Both the position numbers and the translations under genes were made by a program. A stretch of 62,749 bases of DNA, filler included, from Candidatus Woesearchaeota archaeon (GTDB taxonomy: Archaea > Nanobdellota > Nanobdellia > Woesearchaeales > GCA-2687795): NCBI GenBank assembly GCA_030753365.1. It is 5 parts of 5 records of this genome, joined end to end, with 100 filler letters (N's around TTAATTAATTAA, not from the genome) between each part and the next. Parts side by side here need not be neighbours in the genome. Positions count along the whole stretch, not along the records: positions 1 to 26,620 come from JASMCJ010000060.1; 4 more parts are not named here. One strand, given 5' to 3'. Of this stretch, positions 3,401-58,100 are shown one piece after another. The notes under the pieces were generated by a model, which did not search any database, was not told where the DNA came from, and was given only the letters and a program-made list of their open reading frames with translations. Each line of letters opens with the position of its first letter. Within the stretch, counting starts at the first letter, position 1.

Positions 3401-6400
3401 ATGTTATCCTGGTCCATATCATAGAGCGTTGCATTGAAGACTATTGATTCAGTCTCTGTGATGGATGGGTCATATATAGGCTCTAGGCTTTGGATTACAG
3501 GAGCATTGTCAAAGAGAGTATTGAACTGCCATGTTTCTGAGCTTGTTGAGTTTAGGGTCCCATCACCAGCAATGACATGCCAATAGTATGTTGAGTTATC
3601 ATTCAGGGTTGAGGTTGTGTATTGGCTGGCAGATGTTACTGTTAACAGGCTTTGGGTTGTCTGGTTTCCAAAGAAGAGATAATATGTTATTGACTGGTTC
3701 TCAGGGTCTGTTGAATTTTGCCAGTCAAGTTTTACTGTTTTTGTTGCTGATACAACTGTTGAAGCGTTTGAGGGAGATGTTAGCGCAACCTTGGACGGCT
3801 CATCATTCTTGTCTATGACATTGATTGTGAATGAATAGGTATCATAGTTTGTTACATTGTCCATGGCTTTTACTTCTATATTGTTTGACCCAACATACGA
3901 ATCATCAGGTATCCAGGAAATTATGCCTGTGCCAGCATCTATTACCATTGTGCCTGGCTTTTCTGTTAAAGAGAATGTTAAGGTTTGCTCCCCGTTTATT
4001 ACGTCTCCATCTGTTGCGTTAATGTCACAGGTGTAAAACTCGCTTTGGTTTGCCTGAGCAGCGCAGGTTGTGGTGATTACAGGGATGTTTTCTGTTGAGT
4101 TCACAAGGAATGTGAATGCCTGCGCAGAAGATACAAGCTCTGTATCGTTTGCTGTTATGTTGCACTGGGATGTTCCATGCCAGTATTGCCTTGGCTTGTA
4201 TACTAAGCTGGTTCCATTAATAGTGCAGTTAACCTCATTTTCAGATATGATTGTATAGGATAATGGCGTGTTTTCAATGTCTGCAAAGTAGGATATTAAG
4301 CTTAATGATGCATGTGGATCACTTTCTGTAATATTTACTTGGTCAGGGGTGGCGTTTGTGTACGGCGCATCGTTAATAGGCGATACATTTACAGTGAATG
4401 TGTTCGAGTTGCCCCATTGACCTTCCTGGTCTTTGGCTTTGAAGTAAACCTTAGCCTGGCCATTCCAGTTTTGCGTTGCGTTGATGTATGAATAGTTTGT
4501 CGGCAGTATGGTTATCATCAGGCTGCTGTCGTTTGAATAGTACCCGTATTCGGTTATTGCGCTGTCCTTGTCATAGATATAGTCGCTTATAACCAACGTG
4601 TTGTTGTAGCTGTCTTCATTGAACGCAACGTCAGGAACAGAAGACATGCCCTCGTTTGTTGGGGCATCATTCTGGCAGGTTGCGTTTAATATGATTAAGT
4701 TGCTTGGCGTTGTGTTTAAGCTATCACTTGCTGTGAATGTTACATTTTCTGTGCCGCACCAGTCTTCATTAGAGTCAATTGTTGCAATGTTACTGGTTAT
4801 TGTGATGGTGATGTTGCTTGTTATACTGGATGTATAGCTTAATGCCTGAGGATCGTTGCCATCAACATCAATGAAATAGGTTGAAAGGTTGACTGTGAAT
4901 GCAGGAGCATCTTCTATGAATGTCCAGTTTGGCATGGTTGAGTTTAGGGTTGGAGCCCTGTTTTGGACTGTGAATGTCTGGAGTGAACTGTTAGCAATAT
5001 TGTTTAGTGTATCGTTTGCAAACCATTTGTATCCTATAGTTTGCTGGTTTGTGAAGTTGTTTGCCCCTATTGTGAATGGATACTGCGATACTGTATAGTT
5101 TTGCCATGCGCCTGACCAGTTTCCATAGAGCCATACAGTTGAGACAGCAGTGATTGTGTCATTAATGGTTACGTTTAATGTGATGCTGTTATTGTTGTAG
5201 CTTGGTTCTGGTGTTTTGGTTAAGTTGAAGAAGTTAGGCCCATAGTTGTCTATAGTGAATACATTGGATTCACTGCTGTTTAGGTTGCCTGCATAGTCCC
5301 AGGCATAGACTGTTATAGTGTGTTCTCCTTCTGCTAAATTCCTTGTATCAAATGAGGTGTTGAGCCAGTTGTTTGAGAAGGTTGTATTGTAGATTACATT
5401 TGAGACGTTGAACAGAACTGATTGAATATTATTTGTGTCTGTTACTGAAGCGTTTAGTATCGTTGGGAATATAGCAGTTGACCAATTAATGTTGTTAACT
5501 GGTGAGTTTATTGTTACTGAAGGAGAGGTTGTGTCTAAGGTTATTTTCCTTGTTATTGTTGATGTTTCAAAGTTTACATTGTCTTTATGGGTTGCATTAT
5601 AATAATAGATTCCTTCATTAAGGCTTGTGAAGTTAATGTTCCTTGAGCCTGCTGGAAGGATTGTTGAGTTGATTAGATTTATACTTGAATTGTATAAATA
5701 GAAGGTGGTGGTGTTTTCGTTTGTTTCTGTTAAGGTTATGTCAACATAAACCCAGTCCCTGCTGAAGTATGAATTATTTGCCCCTGATGCAAATGCTATT
5801 GAAGGAACTGTGTTATCTATTGTGATATTGTATAATGTTGTTGTATTTGAATTGCCAACACTATCATTATAATAAATAGTTATATTGTATGAATCGTCCA
5901 TGTTCTTAGAAGTATTCCATAAATAATACCATATATCACTATTATTGCTCATTAAGTAATTAGTGCTGTTGAAGCTGATTACCGCAGAGCTTACTTCTGT
6001 TATATTTGCTGTTATATTATATGAACCTGTTATGAATTCAGGTATCGCCCATGAATTAAATGAAGGAGGAAATTCATCATTTAACCTTCCAGGTGTTCCA
6101 TTTGTTGATACACTCTCTGTCCAGTTCCCATTATACCAGATTAAGGTTTTTCCATTACCATCAGCTAAACTAGCAAAATCTGTATAATTTATCAAATGGA
6201 TGTATGAACCATTTGAAAGGTTGATTGTATCTCCTGCATTCATAAGGCTGAAAGTTCCATCACTAGCATTATAGCTTGCATCAGTAGAGTTCCATACTGT
6301 ATCATTATTGCCATAATATGATTCAAAGCTTTCATTATCAGTAACATCAACAAGCTCTCTTGCAATAACAACATATCCACCAGCTGAGATGCTAATGCTA

Positions 6401-6615
6401 TCAAACACAGTATCATCAATTGTCCAGCCAGTTAAGTTCACAATAGCAGTTCCATTATTATAAAGCTCAATCCATTCTAAATCAGTATCACTTCCCTGAG
6501 AAGCAGAAGGGTCATACATAATTTCATTTATAAGCACATCGCTTAGGACTGGTCTTATATTTAACAATATGAATAGAATTCCAAATACCACCAATAACTT
6601 CTTTTTACTAATCAT
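466..6615 (-). CDS. Giant surface protein/adhesin (2049 aa): signal peptide, lamin-tail domain, many Ig/cadherin-like repeats, C-terminal TM anchor
   Basis: VLINEIMYDP..EWIELYN (LTD); repeated VNNTNDAP / ITASDxD cadherin-type motifs; many NxT/S sequons; hydrophobic C-terminus followed by RRR. Confidence 0.85.
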   Translation of the reverse strand: MISKKKLLVVFGILFILLNIRPVLSDVLINEIMYDPSASQGSDTDLEWIELYNNGTAIVNLTGWTIDDTVFDSISISAGGYVVIARELVDVTDNESFESYYGNNDTVWNSTDASYNASDGTFSLMNAGDTINLSNGSYIHLINYTDFASLADGNGKTLIWYNGNWTESVSTNGTPGRLNDEFPPSFNSWAIPEFITGSYNITANITEVSSAVISFNSTNYLMSNNSDIWYYLWNTSKNMDDSYNITIYYNDSVGNSNTTTLYNITIDNTVPSIAFASGANNSYFSRDWVYVDITLTETNENTTTFYLYNSSINLINSTILPAGSRNINFTSLNEGIYYYNATHKDNVNFETSTITRKITLDTTSPSVTINSPVNNINWSTAIFPTILNASVTDTNNIQSVLFNVSNVIYNTTFSNNWLNTSFDTRNLAEGEHTITVYAWDYAGNLNSSESNVFTIDNYGPNFFNLTKTPEPSYNNNSITLNVTINDTITAVSTVWLYGNWSGAWQNYTVSQYPFTIGANNFTNQQTIGYKWFANDTLNNIANSSLQTFTVQNRAPTLNSTMPNWTFIEDAPAFTVNLSTYFIDVDGNDPQALSYTSSITSNITITITSNIATIDSNEDWCGTENVTFTASDSLNTTPSNLIILNATCQNDAPTNEGMSSVPDVAFNEDSYNNTLVISDYIYDKDSAITEYGYYSNDSSLMITILPTNYSYINATQNWNGQAKVYFKAKDQEGQWGNSNTFTVNVSPINDAPYTNATPDQVNITESDPHASLSLISYFADIENTPLSYTIISENEVNCTINGTSLVYKPRQYWHGTSQCNITANDTELVSSAQAFTFLVNSTENIPVITTTCAAQANQSEFYTCDINATDGDVINGEQTLTFSLTEKPGTMVIDAGTGIISWIPDDSYVGSNNIEVKAMDNVTNYDTYSFTINVIDKNDEPSKVALTSPSNASTVVSATKTVKLDWQNSTDPENQSITYYLFFGNQTTQSLLTVTSASQYTTSTLNDNSTYYWHVIAGDGTLNSTSSETWQFNTLFDNAPVIQSLEPIYDPSITETESIVFNATLYDMDQDNMRYNWSINGITSSNGTTSSYNETVSFTFTSDYNSSANSPYTIKLEIKDVNNNTGISESWVTTVANNNRAPVLASITDKSINEDSVLTFNITASDPDLIYGDSLTYSSNLTQLSIQKINNTLASVSWTPTNDNIGSNTINFTVTDGTLSDSQTIIITVNNTNDAPILNPIGSLTAYEDTAFVYDVNATYVDIGDNLTFYDNTTLFNISPSTGIISFMPTENDIGTHYINITVKDALNASDSEIVALTISNTNDAPSLAAIGSYSVLEDSTLSFSITASDIDLAYGDSLSYSSNLTQLTIQKINNTLALVSWTPVNDDVGSTAINFTVTDSGGLSSSQTATITVNNTNDAPNISSYYPMFNPAIADYTGTQTFNITKSDVDNDPLTVKWIISDIEVSNNDYYTAGNLSPGTYTVKVVLNDSTAYIARSWTLTVSELPISNKYAGTFKLLNKSQLDNATNITIESPKGRIDFGNTTLNLSDVVDFDNYINISKGVIGIDTTKFPALNKPAEIILGGLEYLTTPIVYYSSGLGVTGSTVCPSSICTDIVYNQTFGRLTFKVNGFSTYWVGTINSAPVITSSAVTSAILNQAYSYGVDASDVDGDTLTYSLTTSPSGMSINNNTGLIIWTPSSLGSFNVVASVSDTILTSTQSFTITVSEAERAKLAITDLDVKVGGKKDSNLVAGKKIDEPAQPGSSVDFILKIENLYTDEEDMKFDNIEVEIIIEDIDDGDDLEDESEEFDLNPEEDRKETISFDIPLEVEEGDYAVRVKVKGEDENNTYHRIEWKLTLEVEKDKHDVIIKDISLSPSIITCDKDIGFGIEVMNIGRKDEDDVSIEITNTQLELDLKETGIELDKDPDDDENSFKKTFYATLPEKLDEGTYPITYKVYYDDKLSDTEREDLVVKGCKQVKKGSAVKGIDLVSRPSYSSSSGVAVAQPVTEGTSIISFAESGDTILLLSAVLMFLCVIVLGFFVLKMLVRRR

Positions 6616-6842: not shown

Positions 6843-6944
6843 AATAAAAAATCCCAATCGCAGCAAGCTGCGGGGTATTTTTAGTATTTAGTTTGCGTAT
6901 TAAGCCGATGCAAGCATCGGGGTATAAAACCCAAACTAAATAAT
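6843..6944. mobile_element. 102-bp double-hairpin non-autonomous element, copy 1
   Basis: Identical to 21465-21566; hairpins CGCAGCAAGCTGCG and CCGATGCAAGCATCGG, each followed by GGTAT; AAT at both ends. Confidence 0.8.
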
Positions 6945-7467: not shown

Positions 7468-7515
7468 TGTATGGGCACAAATAAACGAAAGATTTATATA
7501 CAATGTGCCCATACA
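7468..7515. promoter_or_regulatory. Inverted repeat TGTATGGGCACA-N24-TGTGCCCATACA enclosing the BRE/TATA box of the fic gene
   Basis: Perfect 12-bp IR; GAAAGATTTATATA lies in the spacer. Confidence 0.75.
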
Positions 7516-7522
7516 TATGTAT

Positions 7523-8452
7523 ATGACCTACATAGAAATCATAAAAAGGAACAAAAAAGAGTATTACTACCTTACAAAAAGTATAAGGCTAAGCCTAAAT
7601 AAGTGGAAGAAAGTCCGTATTTTCCTAGGAGATAAAATGCCTTCAAAAGAAGAACTAAAAAAATATGTTCAACAAATAGAAGAAAAAGCAAAGCCTTACA
7701 TAGAAAAATACAGTTATCTTTCAGAAGATAGTGCTGAGATTCTACAGGACTTAAAAGAAAGTTATAATATATGGCTAAAACAAACTCCAAAAAGTGTTAA
7801 GGAAAAGCTTAATGAGGATTTTGTAATAAGATTTACTTACCATAGCAACGCTATTGAAGGAAATAGGTTAACTTTAAGGCAGACCGCCTTAATTCTAAAA
7901 GATAAAGTAATCCCTTCTGGAGTAAGAGCTGAAGATTATAATGAAGCAATAAATGGAAAAGAATGTTTAGATTATATTAAGCAGTATGAAGGTAACTTAA
8001 ACACAAAATTTTTAGAAAGAACAAATGGTATTCTAACAAAAAATACTGGTATTGTATATGGTGGAAGAATAAGGTTTTTCGATGTCCAAATCCAAGGATC
8101 CACACATGTTCCTCCATCTCATACAGAAGTTAAAAAGCACATGCTCAATTTCTTTAAATGGTATAGTGCAAATAAGAATAAACTGCATCCTTTTGAATTA
8201 GCTGCTTTAGTTCATGCAAAATTAACTTGGATTCATCCTTTTGAAGACGGAAATGGAAGAACAGCCAGAACTCTTATGAACTTCATTTTGATGAAAAAAG
8301 GATTTCCTATGCTTTTTATCCCTTTTGAAAAGAGAGAACAATATTATCAATCATTGGATATTGCTGATAAAGGAGATTATAAAGAATATATTTCCAGAAT
8401 CCTAAGGTTGATTATAGATCAAATAAGAGTGTATGGGCACAATAAAAAATAA
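7523..8452 (+). CDS. fic: Fic-domain protein with an N-terminal basic beta-rich extension
   Basis: HPFEDGNGRTAR catalytic motif; YHSNAIEGN inhibitory-type motif. Confidence 0.93.
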   Translation: MTYIEIIKRNKKEYYYLTKSIRLSLNKWKKVRIFLGDKMPSKEELKKYVQQIEEKAKPYIEKYSYLSEDSAEILQDLKESYNIWLKQTPKSVKEKLNEDFVIRFTYHSNAIEGNRLTLRQTALILKDKVIPSGVRAEDYNEAINGKECLDYIKQYEGNLNTKFLERTNGILTKNTGIVYGGRIRFFDVQIQGSTHVPPSHTEVKKHMLNFFKWYSANKNKLHPFELAALVHAKLTWIHPFEDGNGRTARTLMNFILMKKGFPMLFIPFEKREQYYQSLDIADKGDYKEYISRILRLIIDQIRVYGHNKK

Positions 8453-9161: not shown

Positions 9162-9824
9162 CTAAATAGCTTTCTTTCCAACCTTCTCCTCAGCCTGCTT
9201 TTTCACAATCTTAAAAAGCTCATCTAAAACCTTCTGAGGAATCTTCACACCAGTCTTTTTCAGGTTTTCCAGAAACTCTCCTAATTCAAATGCAGCGCTC
9301 TGCCTGCCTAGTTCTATCTGGTTCCTTGCTTCTTCAATAATTACTTTAAAATCAATAGTTATTTCTTTGATTATGTTTCTTGCATCATCTATATCCTTCA
9401 TTCTATCAGTTGCGCATTTCATTAATATTATATCATGAGGGTCAGCAACTTTCAATATCAGGTTATTATTGAATTGATGCGTTTTTTCAGCTCTTTTCAT
9501 CATCTGCTTTGAAAAGATAAAATCTATTACATTAACCAAGAATAAATCAAATCTTTCATCATCCAATCTTAGCATTAAAGGTTGGTTTCTTTTAGCTCCA
9601 TATATTTCAATGGAATCCAGCTCATGATATCCAATATCTTTAACAGCTTCCTTGAAAACAGTCCTATCTTCTTCTTTCTCAAAAACAAGGTCGATATCTA
9701 AAGTAGCCTCTTTAAATCCTAAGAACATCATAGCTGTGCCGCCTATTGCATACATTGTCACAGGCTTTTTAAGCCTTCTTGAGACGTTTAACAATAATTT
9801 CTGCTGTCTTTCTATGGAAATCAT
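9162..9824 (-). CDS. Nucleotidyltransferase (DUF6036/AbiEii-like), putative toxin
   Basis: IGGTAM...TLDID and MK...R.KD..D motifs. Confidence 0.8.
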   Translation of the reverse strand: MISIERQQKLLLNVSRRLKKPVTMYAIGGTAMMFLGFKEATLDIDLVFEKEEDRTVFKEAVKDIGYHELDSIEIYGAKRNQPLMLRLDDERFDLFLVNVIDFIFSKQMMKRAEKTHQFNNNLILKVADPHDIILMKCATDRMKDIDDARNIIKEITIDFKVIIEEARNQIELGRQSAAFELGEFLENLKKTGVKIPQKVLDELFKIVKKQAEEKVGKKAI

Positions 9825-9876
9825 AAAAATACCCCCAGTATTTTTATGGCTTGAAAATTATCCAAGATTTTCATTG

Positions 9877-10497
9877 TCATAAAAATACCTCCATATCCTT
9901 CTTGTTAAAAGGTAGATAAATTTTCCAGCTCTTCTCTATCTCACCAAAATCCTTAGATTTCAACCCTAGTATAACATATTCAAACCTATACTTCTTTTTT
10001 GGAAGCGTATTGTTTCTAAATCTCTTTGTCATCCTTCTAACCCTAAAAAACTCTCTTGCTAAATCATACAACGCGCCAACCTGCCTTTCTATATGGTTTG
10101 CCTTTGCCAAATAGTACAGATTGCTCCAATCATCAATTTCCTTGAATAAGGCAAGAGCTGCAAGAATTGTTCTTAGGCTTTTGGTCTTTAAGGCATAAAT
10201 AAGTGTCTCTTCCAAACCTGGCCTTTTTCCATAGATATTATAAGTTTTTGGAACTACTAGTTTAATCGGTGAATATTTATTGATTATTTCATAATAACTA
10301 ACACCCTTGAGCCTGTTCTCAAACGATATATTGTATGCTCTTTTGTTATTTTCTAATCTTCTTGTCTTAACATAGCCTTTTTCTCTTAATCTATAAATAT
10401 AGTATATAGCTTTCTCTCTGCTTAACTTAAGAGCATCCATAACTGTTTCAATGGTTTGTATTCCTTCAAGTTTATTAAGTAGGTCCCTTGTTTTCAT
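9877..10497 (-). CDS. wHTH-containing partner of the NTase (AbiEi-like antitoxin)
   Basis: N-terminal wHTH-like segment (AIYYIYRLREKGYV); directly upstream of the NTase; 12-bp direct repeats AAGTTAAATGTA (10499, 10553) flank its TATA box. Confidence 0.6.
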   Translation of the reverse strand: MKTRDLLNKLEGIQTIETVMDALKLSREKAIYYIYRLREKGYVKTRRLENNKRAYNISFENRLKGVSYYEIINKYSPIKLVVPKTYNIYGKRPGLEETLIYALKTKSLRTILAALALFKEIDDWSNLYYLAKANHIERQVGALYDLAREFFRVRRMTKRFRNNTLPKKKYRFEYVILGLKSKDFGEIEKSWKIYLPFNKKDMEVFL

Positions 10498-10582
10498 AAA
10501 GTTAAATGTAGGCATAAGTAATATATAAACTTTTCGTTTTATTTAAGATAAGAAGTTAAATGTAAAACTAATCTTATGATAT

Positions 10583-14093: not shown

Positions 14094-14186
14094 TTTGTCA
14101 CTAATTGACAAAAGATAACAAATAAGGATTCTTTATCAACAATTGATAAAAAGGTTTAAATACTAGTTTGCTGTCAATAATTGATA
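14094..14186. promoter_or_regulatory. Three TRTCA-N5-TGAYA palindromes at 38-bp spacing around a BRE/TATA box
   Basis: Centres at 14103, 14141 and 14179; AAAGGTTTAAATA at ~14150-14162. Confidence 0.7.
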
Positions 14187-14554
14187 TGGATGAACAAAAG
14201 AGGATTATTATTGAAGCCTTAACCGAATTTTTAGCTTCTGCAAAAGAAGATGAGAACAAAGACAGGATTAAATCCGCAATAACAATGTACTTTAAGGTAA
14301 TTGTAGAATGCTGTGATTTCTTAATCCACAGCCAAATACTCAAAGTGCCATATAACCACAAGGAAAGATTCGAATTATTGGAAAGATTCTTCCCGGAGAT
14401 CTATCCTAAAGTAAGTTCGCTGTTCAAAGTATATAGAAAAACCTATTCTATGATAGTTAAAAAAGAAGACTTAGAGGTAATAAAAGGTGGCTGTCACCAA
14501 GTCCTTAAAGAAGCCAAAATTGAAGAACATTTGCCAAAGAATATTAAAGAATAA
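14186..14554 (+). CDS. HEPN/DUF86-like protein (putative partner of the MNT)
   Basis: All-helical; NHKERF and YRKTY motifs; overlaps the MNT gene. Confidence 0.5.
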   Translation: MDEQKRIIIEALTEFLASAKEDENKDRIKSAITMYFKVIVECCDFLIHSQILKVPYNHKERFELLERFFPEIYPKVSSLFKVYRKTYSMIVKKEDLEVIKGGCHQVLKEAKIEEHLPKNIKE

Positions 14555-15050
14555 AGAGCTTGAAGATATATTTATTATAGGCTCTTTTGTCAAAGGCAAA
14601 GAAAAGGCTAGAGACATCGATTTATGTTTTATTTTCAATAATTACAATGACAAAATCATCAAAGATGCATACGATGACTTTAACAAAAATAATCTTAATG
14701 TGCATATAACAAAAACAAAGTTCAACAATATGTTAGAGGATGCTTCTTTATGGAAAACTATTCTTCATGAAGGCTATAGTATAAAAAAGAAGAAAAATGT
14801 ATCTGAAGTACTAAACATAACTCCTTATTTCCTATTTGAATACAGCCTAAAAGTCCTAAACAAGATTAAAAAGCAAATCTTTTCTCATGCTCTGTATGGA
14901 ACAGGTGGTAGGGAAAGTTTTTTAAAGCTGAATAACGGATTTAAGACAGGAAAAGGCTCTATTATAGTTCCAATTAAAAATTCAGAAAGAATAAGAGAGT
15001 TTTTTGATACATGGAATGTAGTATATAAGGCAAGAAGAATTTGGTTGTAA
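14487..15050 (+). CDS. Minimal nucleotidyltransferase (MNT) with a C-terminal extension
   Basis: IGSFVKG...DIDL motif. Confidence 0.8.
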   Translation: MAVTKSLKKPKLKNICQRILKNKELEDIFIIGSFVKGKEKARDIDLCFIFNNYNDKIIKDAYDDFNKNNLNVHITKTKFNNMLEDASLWKTILHEGYSIKKKKNVSEVLNITPYFLFEYSLKVLNKIKKQIFSHALYGTGGRESFLKLNNGFKTGKGSIIVPIKNSERIREFFDTWNVVYKARRIWL

Positions 15051-15064
15051 AAAAGAGGATGAAC

Positions 15065-17626
15065 ATGGCTAATGTTAAAGGCTGGATAAAGAATTTTTAT
15101 TCAAGAGGAAAGGGAAGAGCAATATATGCCAAAGACAACATTAAAGAAAAAGTAGTAAATACTAAAGATAACCTTAAGCGTAGACATCATGAAAGAAAGA
15201 ACACAAGAGAACAAAGAAGAGGAGGTATAAGCACAGCAAAAGCTGAAAAAAGGGATCTTAACACTGCTTATACAGAAACTTTGAGTAACGAGAGATTATC
15301 TTTAGAAGAAAAGAGAGCAAGACTACAGGAGATAGCTGAACAAAGGGATCAACAAAAACAGGTACTACATGATTATAGGGCACAAAGAACAGCAGGCCTT
15401 AGAAACGCTAAAGATAAGGTTAAAACAGGAACAAATGCAGTTGGAAGAGCAGTAAGAACAACAGGAAGAGGCATAGCAACAGGAGCAAGTGCAGTTAAAA
15501 GAGGGTCAACAAAAGTAGCAGCTTCAGCAGCCTCAATAAACTTCCTCCTGCTTCTTGCTGTCACAATTCACTTCATAGACGCAAGAGTATTCGGCTTTAG
15601 CAGAGGACCAGCCACATCAGGCATAATGGTCATTAGCTATACAATTTTGTTTATATACGCTTATTTTATAGTATTCGGAAATGACACAAGCAAATTTCTA
15701 ATATTATCTTCCTTATCCATCTTCAGTTTTTTTCTTCCGATTATAAGGGACTATGTTATACTGCCAGCATTTAGATTTATATCTCCATCAGCATCATTAA
15801 TTTCTGTTAATTTTATTATGATAGTTGCGCCTTTATGGGTTATTTATATAATGTTTAAGCATTCTGGAGATTCGAAGCTAATCAAACTACTCTCAACAGC
15901 TTACGTTTTGGGCTGGTTTATCTTTTTCATGATTCATATTTATACAAACCCTGCTTATACTACTATAAGATTAGATAATCAGGAACTAAGCCTTGCCGAG
16001 TTAAGAACAAAAAATATAGTCGATGTAAAAGGAACAATGAAAAGATTTTTATGGGATCCAGGCAAGTCATTATATCATAAATTCATCAAAACCATAGAAA
16101 GTGCACCTGAACAAGTACAAAAAGCCTGGAAAGCCCAGATAGCCCTTGCCACAGGCGATTATTACACTGGCAAGGTTGATCAGAACGCAAACGAACAGTT
16201 AGGAGTTTATTTAGAAGATATACAAATGGCAGACCCTGAAGTATATGAAGATGAGTCTGTCACAGCCTGGGCAAACCTTAAGGCAAGAACACTAGACAAG
16301 GAAAAGCCAGTAAATGTTACTATAAGCTGCTGGAAAGACAAAAAAACAGAAAGCAATAAAGGCAGAATTTCCCCACAAGAAAACTTCACAATTTACACTC
16401 TGGAAGAAGAAGAAGTTGACTGCTTCTTTGACAAATATAAGTTGGGCAAAGGCTCTCATTCAATAACCTTCTCTGCAGGCTTCAACTTTGAGACAATGTC
16501 TTACCTTAAATCATATTTCATGGACAAGCAGAGAAAAAGAGCCATGAGAAGGGAAGAGATTGACATATTTGATCAGTTTGAGATAGAAGACAAGGATCCC
16601 ATTGCAGTTTACACTGTAGGCCCTGTCATGATTGGCATGGAAATCAGGGAAGATCTTCCTGTTGGTATTGACAGAAACGAGGAAGAAGAAACCTTTGTTT
16701 TAGGCATTACACTAAAGAACAATTGGGAAGGAAAGATTGAAGATGTTACAACTCTCACAATAATCACACCAGAATATGTTAAGCTAATCAAAGACGAATC
16801 AACTAAAAACTATTGTCTGAACTATAAGTTTGATGAAGAATGCAATGAAGAAGATGTTTGCGAATATAAATTAAACCAGGACAGTGAAAGGATAGGCTCT
16901 GTTGATACATACGTTTCATTAAGATGCCCTATAGTTATCGAGAAGGGTGAACAAACTGATAAAAATAATTATGACAGTTTCTTGGGCGATACACCATTAA
17001 CAATAAAATACTTTAAGGTAACTGCAGACTACCAATACGCCTTTGAGCAAGCAATAACTGTTAATGTAAAAGAATCAGATTATAAGTCAGAAGAAAGAAA
17101 GGAAGAAATTCTTATTGATACTATTGTATTGCATCATACAGCAACTTCCACTGCAGAAAAAACAGAAGAAGTTCTTAAAGAGCGTGGTGTTTCAGCTCAT
17201 TATATAATAGACAAAGAGGGCAACATAAAAAATATTGTCCCTTTAGAAAGGACTGCTTACCATGCTGGCTGTAAAGTTGATGAAAATAAATGTGTTGATA
17301 TATATAAAGATATAAACCAAAGGTCAATTGGCATAGAGATTGTTAATACTGGTCAGGAAACTGATAAGTTTACAGATAAACAATACGAAAAGGTTAAGGA
17401 ATTAATAGCCCAAATAACAGAAGAATATTCTATACCAAAGGATAAAGACCATATTTTAGGCCATTACCAAATCACAACAGATAAATGGGACCCTTCACCT
17501 AACTTTGACTGGAATAAAATAGATCTAGGAGATCATCAAACAGTTTATGGTGTTAAATGCCCTTATGATAAAACACATGCTTTAGCCAAGGCTGGTTATC
17601 CACCAGCAAACTGTCCGAATGATTAA
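15065..17626 (+). CDS. Multi-TM membrane protein with an extracellular beta module and a C-terminal N-acetylmuramoyl-L-alanine amidase (Amidase_2) domain
   Basis: Basic coiled-coil N-terminus; ~5 TM helices; IVLHHTA, SAHYII, AYHAG, N.RSIGIE, GH and KWDPSP amidase motifs; start assigned after GAGG. Confidence 0.85.
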   Translation: MANVKGWIKNFYSRGKGRAIYAKDNIKEKVVNTKDNLKRRHHERKNTREQRRGGISTAKAEKRDLNTAYTETLSNERLSLEEKRARLQEIAEQRDQQKQVLHDYRAQRTAGLRNAKDKVKTGTNAVGRAVRTTGRGIATGASAVKRGSTKVAASAASINFLLLLAVTIHFIDARVFGFSRGPATSGIMVISYTILFIYAYFIVFGNDTSKFLILSSLSIFSFFLPIIRDYVILPAFRFISPSASLISVNFIMIVAPLWVIYIMFKHSGDSKLIKLLSTAYVLGWFIFFMIHIYTNPAYTTIRLDNQELSLAELRTKNIVDVKGTMKRFLWDPGKSLYHKFIKTIESAPEQVQKAWKAQIALATGDYYTGKVDQNANEQLGVYLEDIQMADPEVYEDESVTAWANLKARTLDKEKPVNVTISCWKDKKTESNKGRISPQENFTIYTLEEEEVDCFFDKYKLGKGSHSITFSAGFNFETMSYLKSYFMDKQRKRAMRREEIDIFDQFEIEDKDPIAVYTVGPVMIGMEIREDLPVGIDRNEEEETFVLGITLKNNWEGKIEDVTTLTIITPEYVKLIKDESTKNYCLNYKFDEECNEEDVCEYKLNQDSERIGSVDTYVSLRCPIVIEKGEQTDKNNYDSFLGDTPLTIKYFKVTADYQYAFEQAITVNVKESDYKSEERKEEILIDTIVLHHTATSTAEKTEEVLKERGVSAHYIIDKEGNIKNIVPLERTAYHAGCKVDENKCVDIYKDINQRSIGIEIVNTGQETDKFTDKQYEKVKELIAQITEEYSIPKDKDHILGHYQITTDKWDPSPNFDWNKIDLGDHQTVYGVKCPYDKTHALAKAGYPPANCPND

Positions 17627-17683
17627 GTAGAAACTGATACTATAACAGACCTAGACGTAATAGAAGAGATATTACCATAAAAA

Positions 17684-18670
17684 ATGAAAAACCTAACCAT
17701 TTTATTCATAACAGCCTTGCTAATCGCAGGCTGCCAACCGCAGCAAAGCAATATCATAACCTATGTTGACATCTATAAAGGCATAGACGGATTAGACATG
17801 GACTTCCTGCCTAATTCTCCTCCTAAAGAGATTTATTCTGGTGAAGAATTCTTTGCAGGCATACAACTAGAAAATAAGGGTGCCTTCGACATAGGAAATA
17901 TCGCAAGAAATGAAGGCGAAAAAGGTTATGAAGCATATTTATCTTTAGTCATAGAAGATGATTACATGGAAGTTGCTGAAGAAGGATTCAAAGATATAAT
18001 ACCATTCAGCCTTGAAGGTAAGAGCACATTCAACCCAAAAGGAACGAAAAACACAACAACCATAAAACTCAAAGCAAAGGATGTTGACACCCAAAGCGAA
18101 TCTCATACATCCCTTATCACAGTCTCAGCCTGCTACAAATACAAAACCACTTTAGGCACAGAAGCCTGTATTGACGCTGACGTTTACAACCTTAACCAAA
18201 AAGCCAAGGCATGCAATGTACAAGACCAAACCTTCTCTGGCCAAGGAGCTCCCGTTGTTATCACAAAAATAGAATCAAGGATGCTGCCTCATGAAGATGA
18301 AAGCAAGGTAAGGCCTTCTTTTATGATTTATATAAAGAATAAAGGCAATGGCCAGGTCATTAAAAGAGATATGATTGAAAATGTATGCACATCTATTACT
18401 CTCGATCATGAAGCATTCAACACAATTTATGCTAATGCAAAACTATCAAACCAACCTTTAGACTGTTCACCTAAAGAGATACAGGAAAGCGAAACTAAAG
18501 AAGGCTACATAAGATTAAAAGACAAAGAAGATTTCATAAGATGCACCTTAACAGAAGGAATAAAAAAGAACAAAGGCACTTATTCAACCCCTTTAACAAT
18601 AGAACTTGATTATGGTTATACGCTGTCAGCCACAAAAGAGGTTAAGATTTTGAAAGAATTAAATTATTAG
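17684..18670 (+). CDS. Putative lipoprotein with a two-part beta-sandwich module
   Basis: LLIAGC lipobox; CYKYKT, GAPVVIT, IKNKGNG and LDYGY motifs that echo the upstream protein. Confidence 0.7.
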   Translation: MKNLTILFITALLIAGCQPQQSNIITYVDIYKGIDGLDMDFLPNSPPKEIYSGEEFFAGIQLENKGAFDIGNIARNEGEKGYEAYLSLVIEDDYMEVAEEGFKDIIPFSLEGKSTFNPKGTKNTTTIKLKAKDVDTQSESHTSLITVSACYKYKTTLGTEACIDADVYNLNQKAKACNVQDQTFSGQGAPVVITKIESRMLPHEDESKVRPSFMIYIKNKGNGQVIKRDMIENVCTSITLDHEAFNTIYANAKLSNQPLDCSPKEIQESETKEGYIRLKDKEDFIRCTLTEGIKKNKGTYSTPLTIELDYGYTLSATKEVKILKELNY

Positions 18671-18738: not shown

Positions 18739-20736
18739 ATGCAGGAAACATATGTCTTATTAATAGGATTTCTAGCTTTAGCATTTGCAGGTATTAAAGC
18801 ATTCATAATCTCAAAGAAAGATCCTGGAACACCAAAGATGAAAGAGATTTCAGATTCCATCCATGAAGGTGCCATGGCTTTTCTTACTAGAGAATACAAA
18901 TATATCATTTGGTTTGTAATTTTTATTGTTATTATACTAGGATTATTCGTTGATAAGACCTGGTTGACTTCAATATGCTTCATTACAGGCGCATTATTTT
19001 CTGCATTGGCTGGAAACCTTGGAATGAGGACTGCCACAAAAGCTAATGTACGAGCTGCAAACGAAGCTAAGAAATCATTAAATAGCGCCTTAAGCACCGC
19101 ATTCTTTTCAGGAACTGTAATGGGCTTCTCAGTGGTAGGCCTTGGATTAATAGGGATTACTGCTTTATACTTATGGACAGGAAACACAAGCACAATTTTC
19201 GGGTTTGCTTTTGGAGCTTCTTCAATCGCACTGTTTGCAAGGGTTGGCGGAGGGATTTACACAAAAGCTGCAGATGTTGGAGCTGATTTGGTAGGCAAAG
19301 TTGAATCTGGCATTCCAGAAGATGATCCAAGAAATCCTGCTGTAATCGCTGATAATGTAGGCGACAATGTTGGCGACGTTGCAGGCATGGGAGCTGACTT
19401 ATTCGAGAGCTATGTTGGAAGCATTATTGCATCCATGGCGTTAGGGGCTGCATTGTTTACTATAAACACAAGAGGAGCTATCTTATTCCCGTTAATGCTA
19501 TCAGGAGTAGGCATCGTTTCAAGCATCATAGGAACATTCTTTGTCAGGGCAAAGAACGAGAAAGACTTGTCGAACGCATTGCAAAGAGGCTTATGGACTG
19601 CAAGCATATTGGTTATAATTGGCGCATGGTTCTTATCAAAATATTTGCTGCCTAGCAATGCTATAGGAGTTTTCATTGCAACAATATCTGGATTAATTGC
19701 AGGCGTAATCATAGGAAAAGTAACAGAATATTATACATCGCATGATTTCAAGCCTGTAAGAACTATTGCCAAATCTTCCCAAACAGGTGCTGCAACGCTT
19801 ATCATAGAAGGTATGGCAACTGGAATGTTTTCTACAATATTTCCTATATTGACTATTGCAGCTGCCATGTTTTCCGCATTTCATTTTGCAGGCATGTATG
19901 GGATAGCTATTGCAGCTGTTGGATTATTGTCAACATTAGGTATTTCCCTAGCTATTGATGCTTACGGCCCTGTTGCAGACAACGCAGGCGGCATTGCAGA
20001 GATGGCTGGATTAGGTAAAAAGATAAGAAAAAGAACAGACGCTTTAGATTCTGTGGGCAACACAACCGCAGCTATTGGAAAAGGGTTTGCAATAGGCTCC
20101 GCAGCCTTAACCGCATTAGCTCTTTTTGTATCATATGTAACAATTGTAAGCGCTAAACTGCCAGGCTTTAGTATTGAAATTACAAATCCTAAAGTAATGG
20201 TCGGCTTATTAATTGGAGGTGTTCTTCCATTCTTATTCAGTTCAATGACTATGAAAGCTGTAGGAAGAGCCGCCCAGGATATTATCTCAGAAGTAAGAAA
20301 GCAATTCAAAACCATTCCAGGATTGCTTAAAGGCAGGAAAGGCGCAAAGCCTGATTCAGAATCCTGTGTAGATATTGTCACAAAAAGCGCATTAAGAGAA
20401 ATGATTTTACCAGGCTTGATTGCTATAATCATTCCTATTGTAATAGGCATCATGCCAGGATTAGGCCCTGAAGCATTAGGAGGTTTATTAGCAGGATCAT
20501 TAGTTACAGGAGTTGTAATTGCTATTTTCATGGCAAACACTGGCGAAGCCTGGGACAATGCCAAGAAGTACATAGAAATGGGCAACTATGGCGGTAAAGG
20601 CTCTGATAACCATAAGGCTGCTGTTATTGGGGATACAATAGGAGATCCCTTTAAAGATACCTGTTCTCCGTCGCTAAATATTCTTATTAAGCTTATGAGC
20701 ATTGTAGCTTTGGTATTTGTGCCGCTTTTTTTATAA
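18739..20736 (+). CDS. hppA: Membrane-integral pyrophosphatase, K+-dependent type (probably Na+-translocating)
   Basis: [39 protein letters not shown] (Ala at the K+-determinant site), [11 protein letters not shown]. Confidence 0.95.
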
Positions 20737-20910: not shown

Positions 20911-22052
20911 ATGAAAAAAGGATTAAAGTTTACAAAAGAACAATTGGAAGATTTATATCATAATAAAAAGTTATCATTAAGTAGTATTGGTAAGAAATTC
21001 AATTGCGAAGAGACTAATATTTTATATTGGATGAAAAAGTTTAATATAAAAAGAAGGTCAGTTTATTATAGAGCTATCAGAATTCCTAAAGAAGTTCTTG
21101 AAGATCTTTATATAAAAAAAAATATTCTTCCCTTAAGATAGCTAAGAAGTTAGATCTTGATGACAGGTTGATTAGAAGAAAGCTAAAAAAACTTGGGATT
21201 AAAACAAGATCTTTATCTGAAGCTAATACAAAAAAGTTTAAAGCTAATTTCATAGGAGATCCAGCAGAAAGGGCATATTTCACTGGCCTAAGAGCAGGCG
21301 ATTTCTATGTTAAATGGTCACATAAATCTATAAGAGTCCAAACAACAACACACACAGCCCAAGTTGAATTGCTCAGAAAAGCCTTTGAGAATTATGGAGA
21401 AACTAAAACATATTTATCAAAGAATAAAGCAAGAGCTGATGAATGGTTCATTTATACTGATTTGAATAAAAAATCCCAATCGCAGCAAGCTGCGGGGTAT
21501 TTTTAGTATTTAGTTTGCGTATTAAGCCGATGCAAGCATCGGGGTATAAAACCCAAACTAAATAATCAATCTTTCCAGTTTCTTTTAAAGAAACCAGACG
21601 AAATTCCATCTTGGATTTTAGAAAATCATGATTATTTTTATCAGTTCTTAGCTGCTTATATGGATTGTGAAGGTAATTGGCATTTTACAAAAAGTCATAA
21701 AATACATTCAAGGTTCACTTTTAGATTAAGAACAGGAGATAAACTGATTCTTGAGAACATAAAGAAAAAGCTATAATTTTTAGGTTGTAAAATAGTTTTT
21801 TCTTTAGATACGAAAAAAGGATCTATGGGCCCTAGTGCTCCTTTTAGGATTGATATATATAACCTCACAATTAATAGAAAACAAGACATAATCAGACTAA
21901 TCAAACATCTCCTCCCTCTAAGCAAACATAGCGAAAAGATAAGAAAGATGAATTTCATCTTAGAGAATAAAGGTAAGAAGTGGCATGAGATATCAGAAGG
22001 CTGGAATAAGATAAGAAAAGAGATTAAAGGAGAACTTCTTAAAAATTCTTAA
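20911..22052 (+). pseudogene. Disrupted LAGLIDADG homing-endonuclease-like gene with N-terminal HTH repeats
   Basis: Motifs AYFTGLRAGDF and FLAAYMDCEG; frameshift in A9 (21114-21122), 99-bp insertion (21468-21566), TAA at 21774. Confidence 0.85.
21465..21566. mobile_element. 102-bp double-hairpin non-autonomous element, copy 2, inserted in the LAGLIDADG gene
   Basis: Identical to 6843-6944; removing 99 bp restores the frame DLN|QSF. Confidence 0.85.
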
Positions 22053-23128: not shown

Positions 23129-23398
23129 ATGAGCTCGTTTAACCCATTCGAAGGGTTGATAGACCCTAAAATAAACGCTATTTTACTTGCTTTCTTTAGA
23201 AATAAGAACGAATTATTTCATCTTAAGAAGCTTTCCAGGCTCTCAAAGGTTCCCATGAGTTCTACTTTCAGGATTACTAAAAAACTTGTTTCATTAAACA
23301 TAATCAAAGTTCTAAACATCCACAAGTTCAAGCTTTATCAACTTGAAGAAAATGAAAAAACAAAAGCATTAGAGGCATTGCTACATGAAAATAAATAA
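23129..23398 (+). CDS. Small wHTH transcriptional regulator
   Basis: LSRLSKVPMSSTFRITKKLV; overlaps the downstream gene. Confidence 0.7.
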   Translation: MSSFNPFEGLIDPKINAILLAFFRNKNELFHLKKLSRLSKVPMSSTFRITKKLVSLNIIKVLNIHKFKLYQLEENEKTKALEALLHENK

Positions 23399-26300
23399 AG
23401 CAATACTAGGAATTTGTATTTTGCTTTTATTCTCAGCTGTAGCTTTAGCTTCAGTTTCTTCTGAAAATGATATCAGCTTAGAGTATAAGCTGGATTCAGG
23501 CACAAGGAGAAACACTATTAACGAGTCTAACACTCAGTTAACATATAATTTAAGGTCAGGCACACAGCCTCAGGTTTTGACAGAGGATTCTATACGGCTT
23601 GACATAACTCCCACAAACACGCCTCCAAAAATAATAGACACAAATAACTTTCTCAACTTCAAGACTCTCACAACCGAAGTTGTTTGGGCAGCTTTATCGC
23701 TTGTGTTTAACAACAGCTTTGGAACCATTGACTTTGAAGAAACCATTGATATCAGCAGAAGAAGTACTGTTAATCTTGATACGTTTGTTGATATCTCAAG
23801 CAATTATATATCCATTAACGGAACTGCTTTGAGCGAGTTCAACAAAACCACAATCATAAGCATAAGAGACCTTTCCTTCTCTAATGTGAGAGTTATGAAG
23901 AATGGCGAAGATTGCTTAGGATGCACATTATTGTCTTATTCAGGCGGAAACATGCAATTCCAGATTGATGATCTGCCAGGCTTTGCTATATACCAGGCTT
24001 CTGACGGCAGTGTTAACCCAGCTATCAGAATTGCCACTAATGCTATTGTCTCCAGCGCTTCACTGAATATCACTGGAGCTACTTATAATGGTATATATCC
24101 TTCAAATGTTACTATTGACATTGGCAATGATGGCACACCAGAGTTCAGCCCGGCCGGAGAGCTTAACACTTCTACTTCGATTAACGATTTTACAAATGTA
24201 TTAAACAGCATACTGCCAGATTGTACTTGCCCAAGCTGCACTTTATCCAACAGCTACCTTACATGCACTATTTCATTGGATATTACATCTGATACAGCTG
24301 GAGTGATTGAATTATCCAACCTTAACATAAGCCAAAACATCAACAATGTCAGCTGGGATGAAGATAATAATTATACCATTATAGACCTTGATGATTATTT
24401 CTATGACGCTGACATGGATAATCTTACTTATTCGTATACAGAAACCGATAATATCTCCGTCTCTATTACTAATGGTATAGTTAGTCTAGCGCCTGCTTTA
24501 AACTTCTTTGGCACAAGAACTATTGTATTTAATGCCACTGATGGCACTAACACTACTCTTAGCAACAATGTCACTCTTACAATCAATTCTGTCAATGATG
24601 CTCCTATATTGACAACTATACCTAATCAATCATGGCTCAAGAACACCAACAACACAGGTGCTTTTGACCTTGATGATTATTTCTCTGATGTAGAAACTGC
24701 CAGCCTTACGTACAATGTTTATAAGATTAATAACACTGGAAATGTAACAATCAGTATAGCCAGCAATAACACTGTATCTTTCTATCCTGCAGTTAACTGG
24801 GCTGGAACAGAAGTCGCCTATTTCACTGCATCTGACGGAATACTAAATACAAGTTCTAATAATATTACACTTTCTGTATCAGTATACGTTCCACCAAGCG
24901 CTGGCGGTGGTGAAGACGCAGCTGCAGATGGAGAAGGTGCAGAAGGAGGAGCAGGACCTGCTAAAAAGCCAAAAGAAATCATATCAAACTTCACTATAAC
25001 CATTGATTTAATAAAAATCTCATTGGTCCAAGGCAAGACAAAGACCACAGCATTCAAGATAACCAATACGGGAGATACAACGCAAAGAATAAAGATAGAG
25101 CCTCATGAGTTCCCTCTTGCATTATTTTTAGATGAAACTGAATTCAGTCTTGCTCCTGGAGAAAGCAAGACTATTACTCTGGATATAAGCGCAATGAAAG
25201 AGTTGCCTCCTGAGATTTATACTGGAAAAATCTACATTAAGAGCAAATCTATCACAAAAGTAGTAAGGCTAATTATAGAAGTTGAGCCAAGGGTTGCCTT
25301 GTTTGATATAATAGTAAGACTTCCAAGAGCCAGCAAGAGAGGCATATTAAAGGGAGAAGAAGTACAGGCAGATATTTCCATGTTTAACATGGGCGATTTA
25401 AAACCAGTAGATGTTGAACTAGAATATAGTATAAAGGATATAGAAGGCAATGTGATTACTGGCAGGACAGAAACACTTGCTGTTGAAACTGAGAATGGTA
25501 TTACAAGAGGATTATTGGTTCCCGATAATGTTGATTTTGGAGATTATTTGTTCTATGCCAAGATAACCTATGGCAAAGAGAAAGCTGTGGCAAGCGAATT
25601 GTTTGAGATTGTAAAAGAAAGGCCTAGCCTGATAAGATATTACTTCCCATATATTTTAGGGATAGGAATAACATTATTCATATTAGGCATTGTTATGTTT
25701 ATTCTGCCTTTAAGAATCTGGAAGACTCCAAAATCAAGAGAAGGCCAACTTAAACTGCTGTTTAAACAAAAACTGCTGCTTGAGAAAGAAAAACAGAAAG
25801 AGCTGAGATTAGAGCTTCAGAAAAAAGAGCTTGTTGAGAAACTAAAGCGAGAGAGAATAAAGGAACAGGAAAAGTTAGTTAGGGAAAAGATAAGGTTCAA
25901 GAATCTCGAGTTCGGAAGAAAATCAAGAGAGAACAGGGAAAGGAAACTACAAATGCGCGAATTTTTGCGTATATTGGGAATATACAAGACAAAAGCAGAT
26001 AAAAAAGAAGATGAAAGAAAAGAAAGAAAGAATAAGGAATTGGAAGCCATAGAGAAAAAGAATAGAGAATTAACATTTAAGAAAGAAAGGAAAACGCAGA
26101 ATATAATCACTAAAAGAACAAGAACAAGAAGACTGCATGAATTTCTGCATACATTTGGATTGCATAGGACAGAAAAAGAAAGGAAAGCGCAGAATATAAC
26201 CACCAAAAGAACAAGAACAAGAAGACTGCATGAATTCCTGCATACATTTGGATTGTATAAAACTAAAGAAGAAAGGAGAAGGAAAGAAAGAGAAAAAGAA

Positions 26301-26620
26301 GAAGAGGAAAAGAAGGGAAGAGAAAAGAGAAAAGAAAAAGAAAGAATTATACAATTTAGAAGGGAGGAAGAAGAAAGGAAGAGAAAAGAAAAAGAAAGAA
26401 TTATGCAAATTAGAAGGGTGGAAGGAGCAAGGAAGGGAAGAGAAGAGAGAAAAGAAGAAGAAAGAATTATACAGATTAGAAGGGAGGAAGAGGAAAGGAA
26501 GAGAAAAGAAAGAAAGAATAAGGAATTGGAAGCCATAGAGAAAAAGAATAGAGAATTAACATTTAAGAAAGAAAGGAAAACGCAGAATATAATCACTAAA
26601 AGAACAAGAACAAGAAGACT
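23385..26620 (+). CDS. Large surface protein: Ig/cadherin-like ectodomain, TM helix, long charged repetitive cytoplasmic tail (3' truncated at the gap)
   Basis: Signal peptide; IDLDDYF and VNDAP repeats; one TM segment; Lys/Arg/Glu-rich tail with DNA repeats. Confidence 0.8.
26016..26620. repeat. Intragenic repeats: 119-bp exact duplication (26016-26134 = 26502-26620) plus ~90-bp and ~60-bp units
   Basis: Direct comparison of the copies; the contig ends inside the repeat. Confidence 0.85.
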
Positions 26621-26720
26621 NNNNNNNNNNNNNNNNNNNNNNNNNNNNNNNNNNNNNNNNNNNNTTAATTAATTAANNNNNNNNNNNNNNNNNNNNNNNN
26701 NNNNNNNNNNNNNNNNNNNN
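26621..26720. other. Artificial contig linker (N44-TTAATTAATTAA-N44); also at 38878-38977, 51060-51159 and 57999-58098
   Basis: Identical 100-bp layout four times; stop codons in all six frames. Confidence 0.97.
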
Positions 26721-38816: not shown

Positions 38817-38977
38817 TTTATAACCCTATATATATCTGTATTTATAAGCTTAACTGATTATAACAACCCTTTTTCTTNNNNNNNNNNNNNNNNNNNNNNN
38901 NNNNNNNNNNNNNNNNNNNNNTTAATTAATTAANNNNNNNNNNNNNNNNNNNNNNNNNNNNNNNNNNNNNNNNNNNN

Positions 38978-51028: not shown

Positions 51029-51159
51029 TTTTATGAGTATTTTTGAGGTTATATATAAANNNNNNNNNNNNNNNNNNNNNNNNNNNNNNNNNNNNNNNNN
51101 NNNTTAATTAATTAANNNNNNNNNNNNNNNNNNNNNNNNNNNNNNNNNNNNNNNNNNNN

Positions 51160-57912: not shown

Positions 57913-58100
57913 GTTAATTCACCTATCTAGTTGTTTAAATACTCTCTAAGAATCAGCTCTTAGAGGCTTCTCTACCCCTTTTATAAGAAGGAATGTTTNN
58001 NNNNNNNNNNNNNNNNNNNNNNNNNNNNNNNNNNNNNNNNNNTTAATTAATTAANNNNNNNNNNNNNNNNNNNNNNNNNNNNNNNNNNNNNNNNNNNNCA

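Follow-up and report, generated by a model that had tools for sequence, protein, structure and literature searches.

Genes A and B and the question they raise

Why would an archaeon in which no murein synthesis was detected display a peptidoglycan amidase on a membrane-anchored protein? The question is raised by two adjacent genes, here called A and B, at positions 15065-18670 of a 62,749-nucleotide (nt) stretch from Candidatus Woesearchaeota archaeon (GenBank assembly GCA_030753365.1). This whole stretch is called the window below. A preliminary description of it had taken the pair for a two-gene surface machine that displays a murein hydrolase on contact, for attaching to, breaching or scavenging bacteria, and saw in it a pointer to a bacterial host or prey. 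With a probability of roughly 0.6, we conclude that A belongs to an attachment complex that repeatedly recruits murein hydrolases against the bacteria it touches, whether living or dead, and that the amidase found here would strip stem peptides at the contact.

Gene A encodes a predicted membrane scaffold with an Amidase_2 domain

Gene A (15065..17626, + strand) is an open reading frame (ORF) of 853 amino acids (aa). From Pfam and an AlphaFold2 (AF2) model, it encodes a membrane-anchored scaffold protein with a C-terminal Amidase_2 domain. Amidase_2 (N-acetylmuramoyl-L-alanine amidase, PF01510) was the sole Pfam family above cut-off in A. It matched aa 684-812 (17114..17500, +) at E 1.7e-31 and 109.7 bits against a cut-off of 26, covering profile positions 5-131 of 131, close to the span of ~17110-17530 given before. 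The motifs HHTA, IGIE, LGHY and KWDP lie at residues 690, 755, 798 and 807. E758, H800, K807 and D809 align with E116, H154, K162 and D164 of AmpD (1j3g), and H690 pairs with the LH motif of AmpDh2 (4bj4), the best solved-structure match of the domain (E 2.8e-11). By analogy with AmpD-type amidases, we take H690, H800 and D809 to be the zinc ligands and E758 to be catalytic. The zinc ligands and catalytic residue had been described as intact, and with these residues in register the amidase is intact as judged from its sequence. A is not an AmpD orthologue, because it scored 76.2 bits on the AmpD equivalog NF008758, under the cut-off of 143.

The rest of the protein has the layout that had been proposed for it, namely a basic N-terminus, about five transmembrane helices and a beta module before the amidase. 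The basic region (aa 1-154; 15065..15526, +), probably cytoplasmic from its composition, is poorly conserved among relatives and contains 38 K/R against 16 D/E and zero Cys. Five hydrophobic segments were found by hydropathy at aa ~153-294, and five transmembrane helices (aa 155-294; 15527..15946, +) were placed by AF2 at 155-174, 182-203, 208-236, 241-265 and 271-294. The model covers aa 145-682 (121 sequences) and has a mean predicted local distance difference test score (pLDDT) of 86.6. A helical stalk (aa ~321-373; 16025..16183, +; pLDDT ~50-70) leads from the membrane to a core conserved in alignments (aa ~380-669; 16202..17071, +), which AF2 folded as an immunoglobulin (Ig)-like domain with an inserted beta domain and two 25-residue connecting strands. 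After the last helix there are 10 Cys and 2 N-glycosylation sequons, and the core holds an invariant Cys pair. Since the number of helices is odd and the N-terminus is basic and free of Cys, the core and the amidase would lie outside the cell.

The fusion of core and amidase is authentic

The window joins five contigs (C60, C64, C65, C67 and C70) by N spacers at 26621-26720, 38878-38977, 51060-51159 and 57999-58098, so gene order across the joins is artificial. Genes A and B lie on C60 (26.6 kb) of a metagenome bin of 897 kb in 78 contigs (completeness 94.5%, contamination 1.5%). With such a source, the fusion might be an artefact of chimeric assembly or a misbinned bacterial contig, an objection that the preliminary description had itself raised. 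We consider this extremely improbable. The junction between core and amidase was spanned by single contigs in all four runs, which came from four studies, and the same fusion was found in three further, more divergent proteins (P0004-P0006). Taxon names were attached to 9 of 44 matches of the core and to 13 of the 120 matches listed for B, and every one of these was Woesearchaeota, Nanoarchaeia, Nanoarchaeota or Nanobdellota. The gene order around A is also common to a genome of the same genus, G001. The contig is archaeal and non-chimeric.

The amidase evolves quicker than the core: identity to P0004, P0005 and P0006 was 67%, 48% and 49% in the amidase versus 87%, 77% and 73% in the core. Its nearest relative outside A proteins (54%) is a protein with a class III-like start. 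The view that the domain came recently from bacteria was unsupported, its closest matches being other A fusions and Woesearchaeales-type membrane proteins in a poorly resolved tree. Strain variants and indels concentrated in the second half of the amidase and in B, and positions 17285-17453 showed indels, a divergent segment and contig breaks in several runs. This clustering suggests co-existing amidase alleles. The stop codon of A (17624-17626) was polymorphic, with T17624C in two of four runs, and protein P0003 extends 18 residues past the stop position.

Murein hydrolases are swapped at the C-terminus of A

A survey of the domains fused to the core, one of the checks proposed beforehand, was made on 131 of the best-scoring loci, one per genome. 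The truncated locus L030 was dropped, leaving 130, and a tail was defined as at least 45 aa after the core. Tails were present in 82 of the 130 proteins. In 32 of the 130 genomes a peptidoglycan-cleaving Pfam domain followed the core, and eight families were represented: SLT (22), Amidase_2 (2), NlpC/P60 (2), M23 (2), GH73 (2), M15_4 (1), 3D (1) and Muramidase (PF11860), the last on one of the two Amidase_2 tails. No other catalytic family was found by Pfam in the 82 tails, the rest being Fn3, PKD, Ig-type or weak matches. Cluster representatives (56 of 150 scanned, picked for length) included the combinations Amidase_3+SLT and SLT+M23, which made Amidase_3 a ninth hydrolase family. Across the order, therefore, the tips point to peptidoglycan.

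The exchange was also visible between close relatives, since G001 has NlpC/P60 in the slot that holds the amidase here, with downstream genes identical in order. On the core tree (FastTree), the label hydrolase or no hydrolase changed at least 18 times, a count that does not separate gains from losses and comes from a tree with long-branch warnings. The amidase fusions of G087 and G027 grouped apart from that of the source genome, suggesting at least two separate gains of the amidase. Two lipoproteins B were themselves extended where A was tail-less: one carries a C-terminal SLT domain (L115:4768-6531, -; a single case among 48 scanned proteins, of which 43 were long lipoproteins) and the other leucine-rich repeats (L130:3375-6794, +).

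The same survey allows the enzyme folds to be read as murein-recognising adhesins that bind and do not cut, like peptidoglycan recognition proteins, and that are interchangeable with Fn3, PKD or Cys-rich tips. Non-catalytic Ig, Fn3 and PKD tails do occupy the same slot, and several tips looked degenerate by eye: M23 of L004, NlpC/P60 of L042 and SLT of L060 and L062 appeared dead, which fits binding over cutting. We regard this explanation as improbable, because all five key residues are kept in the amidase of the source genome, P0005 and P0006 retain the His, Glu, His and Asp motifs, and the catalytic Glu is kept in 20 of the 22 SLT tips (by eye).

A and B belong to a conserved cluster of five genes

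In the order, the core profile had a match in 243 of 301 genomes and almost always just one (6 of the 243 are unpublished, and no further claim depends on them). It also matched 155 of 201 genomes in a sample of the phylum and 1588 clusters at 50% identity. The surface scaffold is thus nearly universal in the order and mostly single-copy. A B-family gene followed A in 122 of 131 loci, and the 9 misses had less than 200 nt beyond A.

Neighbourhoods of up to ~10 kb were compared at 100 loci. The usual gene order was U-A-B-C-D, in which U is a pilin-like protein of ~400 aa and C and D are further lipoproteins. U was upstream in 90 loci, and 262 lipoprotein genes were found in 94 loci. The two-gene machine of the preliminary description was accordingly too small, A and B being members of this cluster. 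The lipoproteins B, C and D are clearly paralogous to one another (E 2e-70 to 4e-34), and a lipobox pattern was found in 43, 40 and 38 of 51 proteins, respectively. U was present in 206 of 301 genomes of a sample of the class. Clusters from other orders of this class contain two lipoprotein genes (12 of 17 loci listed).

The cluster is split in the source genome, and its remaining members lie outside the window: a partial C on contig C29 (G000:C29:2-664), and D (G000:C38:2489-3412) and U (G000:C38:7504-8706) on C38. There D, the replication factor C (RFC) small subunit, a PRC-barrel gene, pelota and U are contiguous, which indicates that the two ends of the ancestral cluster were rearranged. 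The RFC small subunit gene (L143:3431-5992, G000:C38) carries an intein with a LAGLIDADG domain. Downstream of B, a membrane H+-pyrophosphatase gene (18739-20736, +) is found here and in G001. It is not a conserved neighbour elsewhere in the 100 loci and lies outside the cluster.

Near-universality and single copy are also what a housekeeping part of the envelope would show, and the cluster is located between pelota (34 of the 100 loci) and RFC small subunit (66 loci) genes. The scaffold might then be an S-layer-like or pilus-base structure whose hydrolase remodels a glycopeptide belonging to the archaeon or to an archaeal host. This seems very improbable to us. The nine families attack glycan, amide and peptide bonds and have murein as their sole common substrate, and a needed housekeeping enzyme would not be missing from most genomes. 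Neither a Mur ligase nor a transpeptidase was found in the source genome at its 94.5% completeness. As no murein synthesis was detected, the substrate would be the wall of another cell.

Gene B is a putative distant paralogue and predicted partner of the A core

Gene B (17684..18670, +) encodes a 328-aa lipoprotein, the first of the three paralogues. As had been noted, it has the features of a lipoprotein: a basic N-terminus, a hydrophobic stretch and the lipobox LIAGC at residues 13-17, with Cys17 at 17732-17734, from which lipidation is predicted. It gave no Pfam or NCBIfam match. The motif parallels reported earlier between B and the middle module of A were invisible to BLASTP, which found nothing significant (best E 0.23). 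Four of the five motif pairs came into register in a profile comparison made with the first alignments (E 0.0018 over 163 columns). With larger alignments the E value fell to 2.3e-4, at a probability of 44% and a score of 36.95; the highest control scores were 20.68 among 20 block-shuffled alignments and 18.0 among 3 reversed ones.

Structure prediction had been recommended for both proteins and for the heterodimer. In the separate models, B (pLDDT 88.9) and the A core share one plan: an Ig-like domain completed by a C-terminal strand, and an inserted beta domain connected through two 25-residue strands (E123-147 and E282-306 in B, E319-343 and E501-525 in A, model numbering). From the profile comparison, a weak signal by itself, and from the models, B is taken to be a distant paralogue of the A core with the same predicted topology.

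The complex of A core and B was predicted with a score of 0.82, the best of three controls reaching 0.01. The mark applied to this score was passed by 116 of 157 solved complexes and by 2 of 215 mismatched pairs. Contacts agreed by at least 96% between runs, and partner pLDDT was at least 83. The predicted B-binding surface comprises aa ~476-507 and 637-653 of A, and the first of these segments is the most conserved stretch of the protein. Binding of B by A is thus predicted by the model.

When the PDB was searched by sequence with profiles of the core, B and U, no meaningful match was obtained. Whole-chain structure searches matched the Ig part only, at best with Z 11.4, root-mean-square deviation (rmsd) 1.8 and 104 aligned residues for B, and Z 8.1, rmsd 3.6 and 113 aligned residues for the A core. 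Kinship with integrin, complement, HAP2/fusexin domain III or chaperones was rejected, these being generic Ig matches (Foldseek, VIA) with TM-scores of at most 0.25. The ESM Atlas had no named look-alike for the A core and returned hypothetical clusters only for U.

The cluster may be linked to a type IV pilus

A class III-like motif of the K/R-G/A-Q type followed by a hydrophobic helix was found by regular expression in 57 of 63 N-termini of U, so cleavage is predicted. U is probably glycan-binding, with weak matches to BcsB in 5 of 18 members and to carbohydrate-binding module (CBM)-like models in 3 of 18. The source genome encodes a prepilin peptidase, and a secretion-type ATPase in it is cut by a contig end and scores below cut-off. 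In G346, the peptidase gene lies ~400 nt from U.

Amidase_2 was found in 41 of 301 genomes of the order. Among the other Amidase_2 loci, 12 of 29 had a class III-like start, versus 31 of 957 ORFs of the source genome. These 12 loci are L165, L168, L169, L170, L171, L173, L180-L184 and L187, and three of their proteins carry a second hydrolase family: SLT in L169, 3D in L184 and M23 in L187. From their sequences, they would form a second, separate family of wall-cutting pilin-like proteins in Woesearchaeales. The order thus repeatedly loads wall hydrolases onto pilin-like as well as cluster-associated proteins.

Proposed role of the complex

The reading that we prefer, contact with bacteria through an attachment complex, can be put as follows. 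A would be the membrane anchor of a heteromeric surface complex with the lipoproteins B, C and D and the pilin-like U. A to D would face outward, held by the helices of A and by lipid anchors; their place is probably a type IV pilus or its vicinity, where U would be a glycan-binding minor pilin. The complex is probably an accessory or attachment part of this pilus and would serve attachment in all carriers. The C-terminus of A is a free slot into which different lineages have repeatedly inserted peptidoglycan-cleaving domains, a hydrolase having been added in about a quarter of the sampled genomes. Here, the zinc amidase would cut stem peptides from the glycan of bacterial murein at the contact site, and the loosened wall would permit attachment, entry or feeding.

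Several observations weigh against this proposal. A tethered enzyme cannot reach intact Gram-negative murein without crossing the outer membrane, and the outer membrane of diderms is a real obstacle unless the pilus breaches it. No pilus platform gene (PF00482) was found in the source genome, and neither an ATPase nor a platform gene was a conserved cluster neighbour in the 100 loci. The C-terminal strand of the A core folds back to the Ig domain in the AF2 model, so the C-terminus need not lie at the distal tip. The paralogy of A and B is weak at the sequence level, as the profile probability indicates. The 130 surveyed loci are the top-scoring part of 243 matches, so their proportions are biased and kin are non-independent. 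Besides the tips that appeared dead, 50 tails had no Pfam hydrolase match and 48 of the 130 A proteins had no tail at all. In the other orders, A has 395-507 aa and one hydrophobic segment and ends at the core with no tail (same 12 of 17 loci listed).

The last of these points shows that wall cutting is not the core job of the scaffold, and the 48 genomes without a tail make its role more basic than that of the enzyme. The scaffold predates the enzyme and functions in its absence, the hydrolase being an optional, swappable add-on. The idea of a surface machine for attaching to, breaching or scavenging bacteria was supported in part, by the order-wide peptidoglycan tips, and has to be amended in that the scaffold is independent of the enzyme.

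A living target is not the only one that fits. The complex could be an envelope scaffold or adhesin whose amidase digests dead sacculi and murein debris on particles, with no living host. The sequence was present in 20 metagenome runs, which belong to 15 studies and are labelled as marine, seawater or vent samples or carry no label (no RNA run was listed, which is uninformative about expression). Marine bacteria are mostly diderm, with murein that stays shielded as long as the cell lives. The swap pattern identifies murein as the substrate and nothing further, and recycling of necromass by Woesearchaeota is discussed in the available part of PMC9723730. We nevertheless consider scavenging unlikely. 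An enzyme tethered to a conserved single-copy complex and pilin-like proteins is better suited to local contact than to digestion in bulk. Quicker divergence of the amidase than of the core is what host-driven change would produce. SLT, M23, NlpC/P60 and GH73 were not found in the source genome (94.5% complete), and one of five hydrolase families is a thin kit for eating walls. The bacterial host or prey of the preliminary description is suggested by the tips, and feeding on dead walls would fit them equally well.

A stronger version of the proposal is that U-A-B-C-D is a conserved host-attachment or entry machine of Woesearchaeota and related orders, in which the slot enzyme is a host-specific key that marks parasites of living bacteria. 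We hold this to be possible but doubtful. If true, a molecular apparatus for archaea that live on bacteria would be known for the first time, together with a sequence marker from which the domain of the host could be predicted. Woesearchaeota are a very abundant uncultured archaeal group whose hosts are undiscovered, and PMC8204110 states, in its available part, as an open question whether any DPANN archaeon lives on bacteria. A near-universal complex in which one variable slot was filled repeatedly by nine unrelated families of murein-cleaving enzymes argues far more strongly for sustained contact with bacterial walls than single scattered genes do. It can be tested free of culture, since the domains are expressible and their bond and chemotype preference would point to the kind of host.

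Comparison with known systems

A has the PF01510 domain in common with AmpD, AmpDh2 and AmpDh3, with catalytic and zinc residues in register. Unlike in that group, its amidase is fused to an archaeal polytopic membrane scaffold in an organism for which murein synthesis was not detected. Bacterial secretion and pilus systems have specialised lytic transglycosylases such as VirB1, which open local space in the murein of their producer. As with VirB1, a wall hydrolase would here be coupled to a surface machine; unlike with VirB1, the wall must be that of another cell, since the producer has no detected murein.

Murein hydrolases and the idea of bacterial hosts are already published for Woesearchaeota in the available parts of PMC8204110, PMC9723730 and PMC12352652, and PMC10936187 is, as far as its available text goes, among the published work on archaeal murein hydrolases and on bacterial hosts of, or predation by, Woesearchaeota. 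PMC12352652 reports that archaea have modular murein hydrolases directed against bacteria, that these are prominent among Nanoarchaeota and that their domains are shuffled; as described in its available text, that survey covered secreted enzymes and required a known cell-wall-binding Pfam domain. Unlike those enzymes, A has no cell-wall-binding Pfam domain, is membrane-bound and lies in a conserved cluster. In the available part of PMC8204110, a family of large lytic transglycosylases of Woesearchaeota and Pacearchaeota, fam00969 (GH23), is tied to the idea of a bacterial host; its median length is 1947 aa, with a signal peptide in 79% and one transmembrane helix. Compared by this description, A proteins differ in having 450-1400 aa, multiple membrane passes and nine swapped enzyme families, and A of the source genome (853 aa, five transmembrane helices, an amidase) falls outside fam00969. 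GH23 is also reported in predatory-type Woesearchaeota in the text available from PMC9723730. Some of the GH23 calls in these two papers may be SLT-tipped A proteins, and module 98 of PMC8204110 may include genes of the cluster among its anonymous families.

On the side of the pilus, the main text of PMC13705601 describes accessory genes of archaeal type IV filament system 1, or Epd pilus, one of which encodes a protein that combines a class III signal peptide with a domain of the sugar-binding type, and reports system 1 pilins in Nanobdellati, with scattered genes as the rule. U-A-B-C-D likewise has a class III signal-peptide protein with a possible sugar-binding fold. Unlike the Epd set, it has no ATPase or platform gene, and it is set apart here with no demonstrated Epd homology; lipoproteins and peptidoglycan are not mentioned in that main text. 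In the same phylum, the Nanobdellota strain YN1 has an attachment organelle embedded in the envelope, whose protein make-up is given as unidentified in the available part of PMC11420986. This is likewise an attachment structure of the envelope; unlike the target proposed here, the host of YN1 is archaeal. A-B-C-D are candidate proteins for such unidentified attachment structures of DPANN archaea.

No description of the U-A-B-C-D cluster, of the A-B complex or of the nine-family swap was found in the literature outside subscription papers. The theme of archaeal murein hydrolases is thus a known one, found here on an undescribed and widespread scaffold.

Other features of the window

Two large secreted proteins with Ig/cadherin-like repeats, typical of surface adhesins, are encoded on the same contig. 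The first (466-6615, -) has 2049 aa and an LTD domain, and the second (23385-26620, +) has more than 1078 aa and is cut by the contig end.

A repeat of 102 nt with two hairpins (-32.6 kcal/mol) was found at 6843-6944 and 21465-21566. It is dispersed, with 21 copies of at least 95 nt on 18 contigs of the genome. The copy at 21465 overlaps a pair of ORFs (20911-21506) at its end; G001 has one ORF of 351 aa at the same position. The Rfam match of the repeat, Phe_leader at 31.9 bits, is below the cut-off of 55, and the repeat is probably a miniature inverted-repeat transposable element (MITE) or a repetitive extragenic palindrome (REP)-like element.

Pairs of nucleotidyltransferase genes were found at 9162-10515 (-) and at 14168-15050 (+), the latter directly upstream of A, and a Fic protein is encoded at 7505-8452 (+). 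These are probably toxin-antitoxin or defence-type modules.

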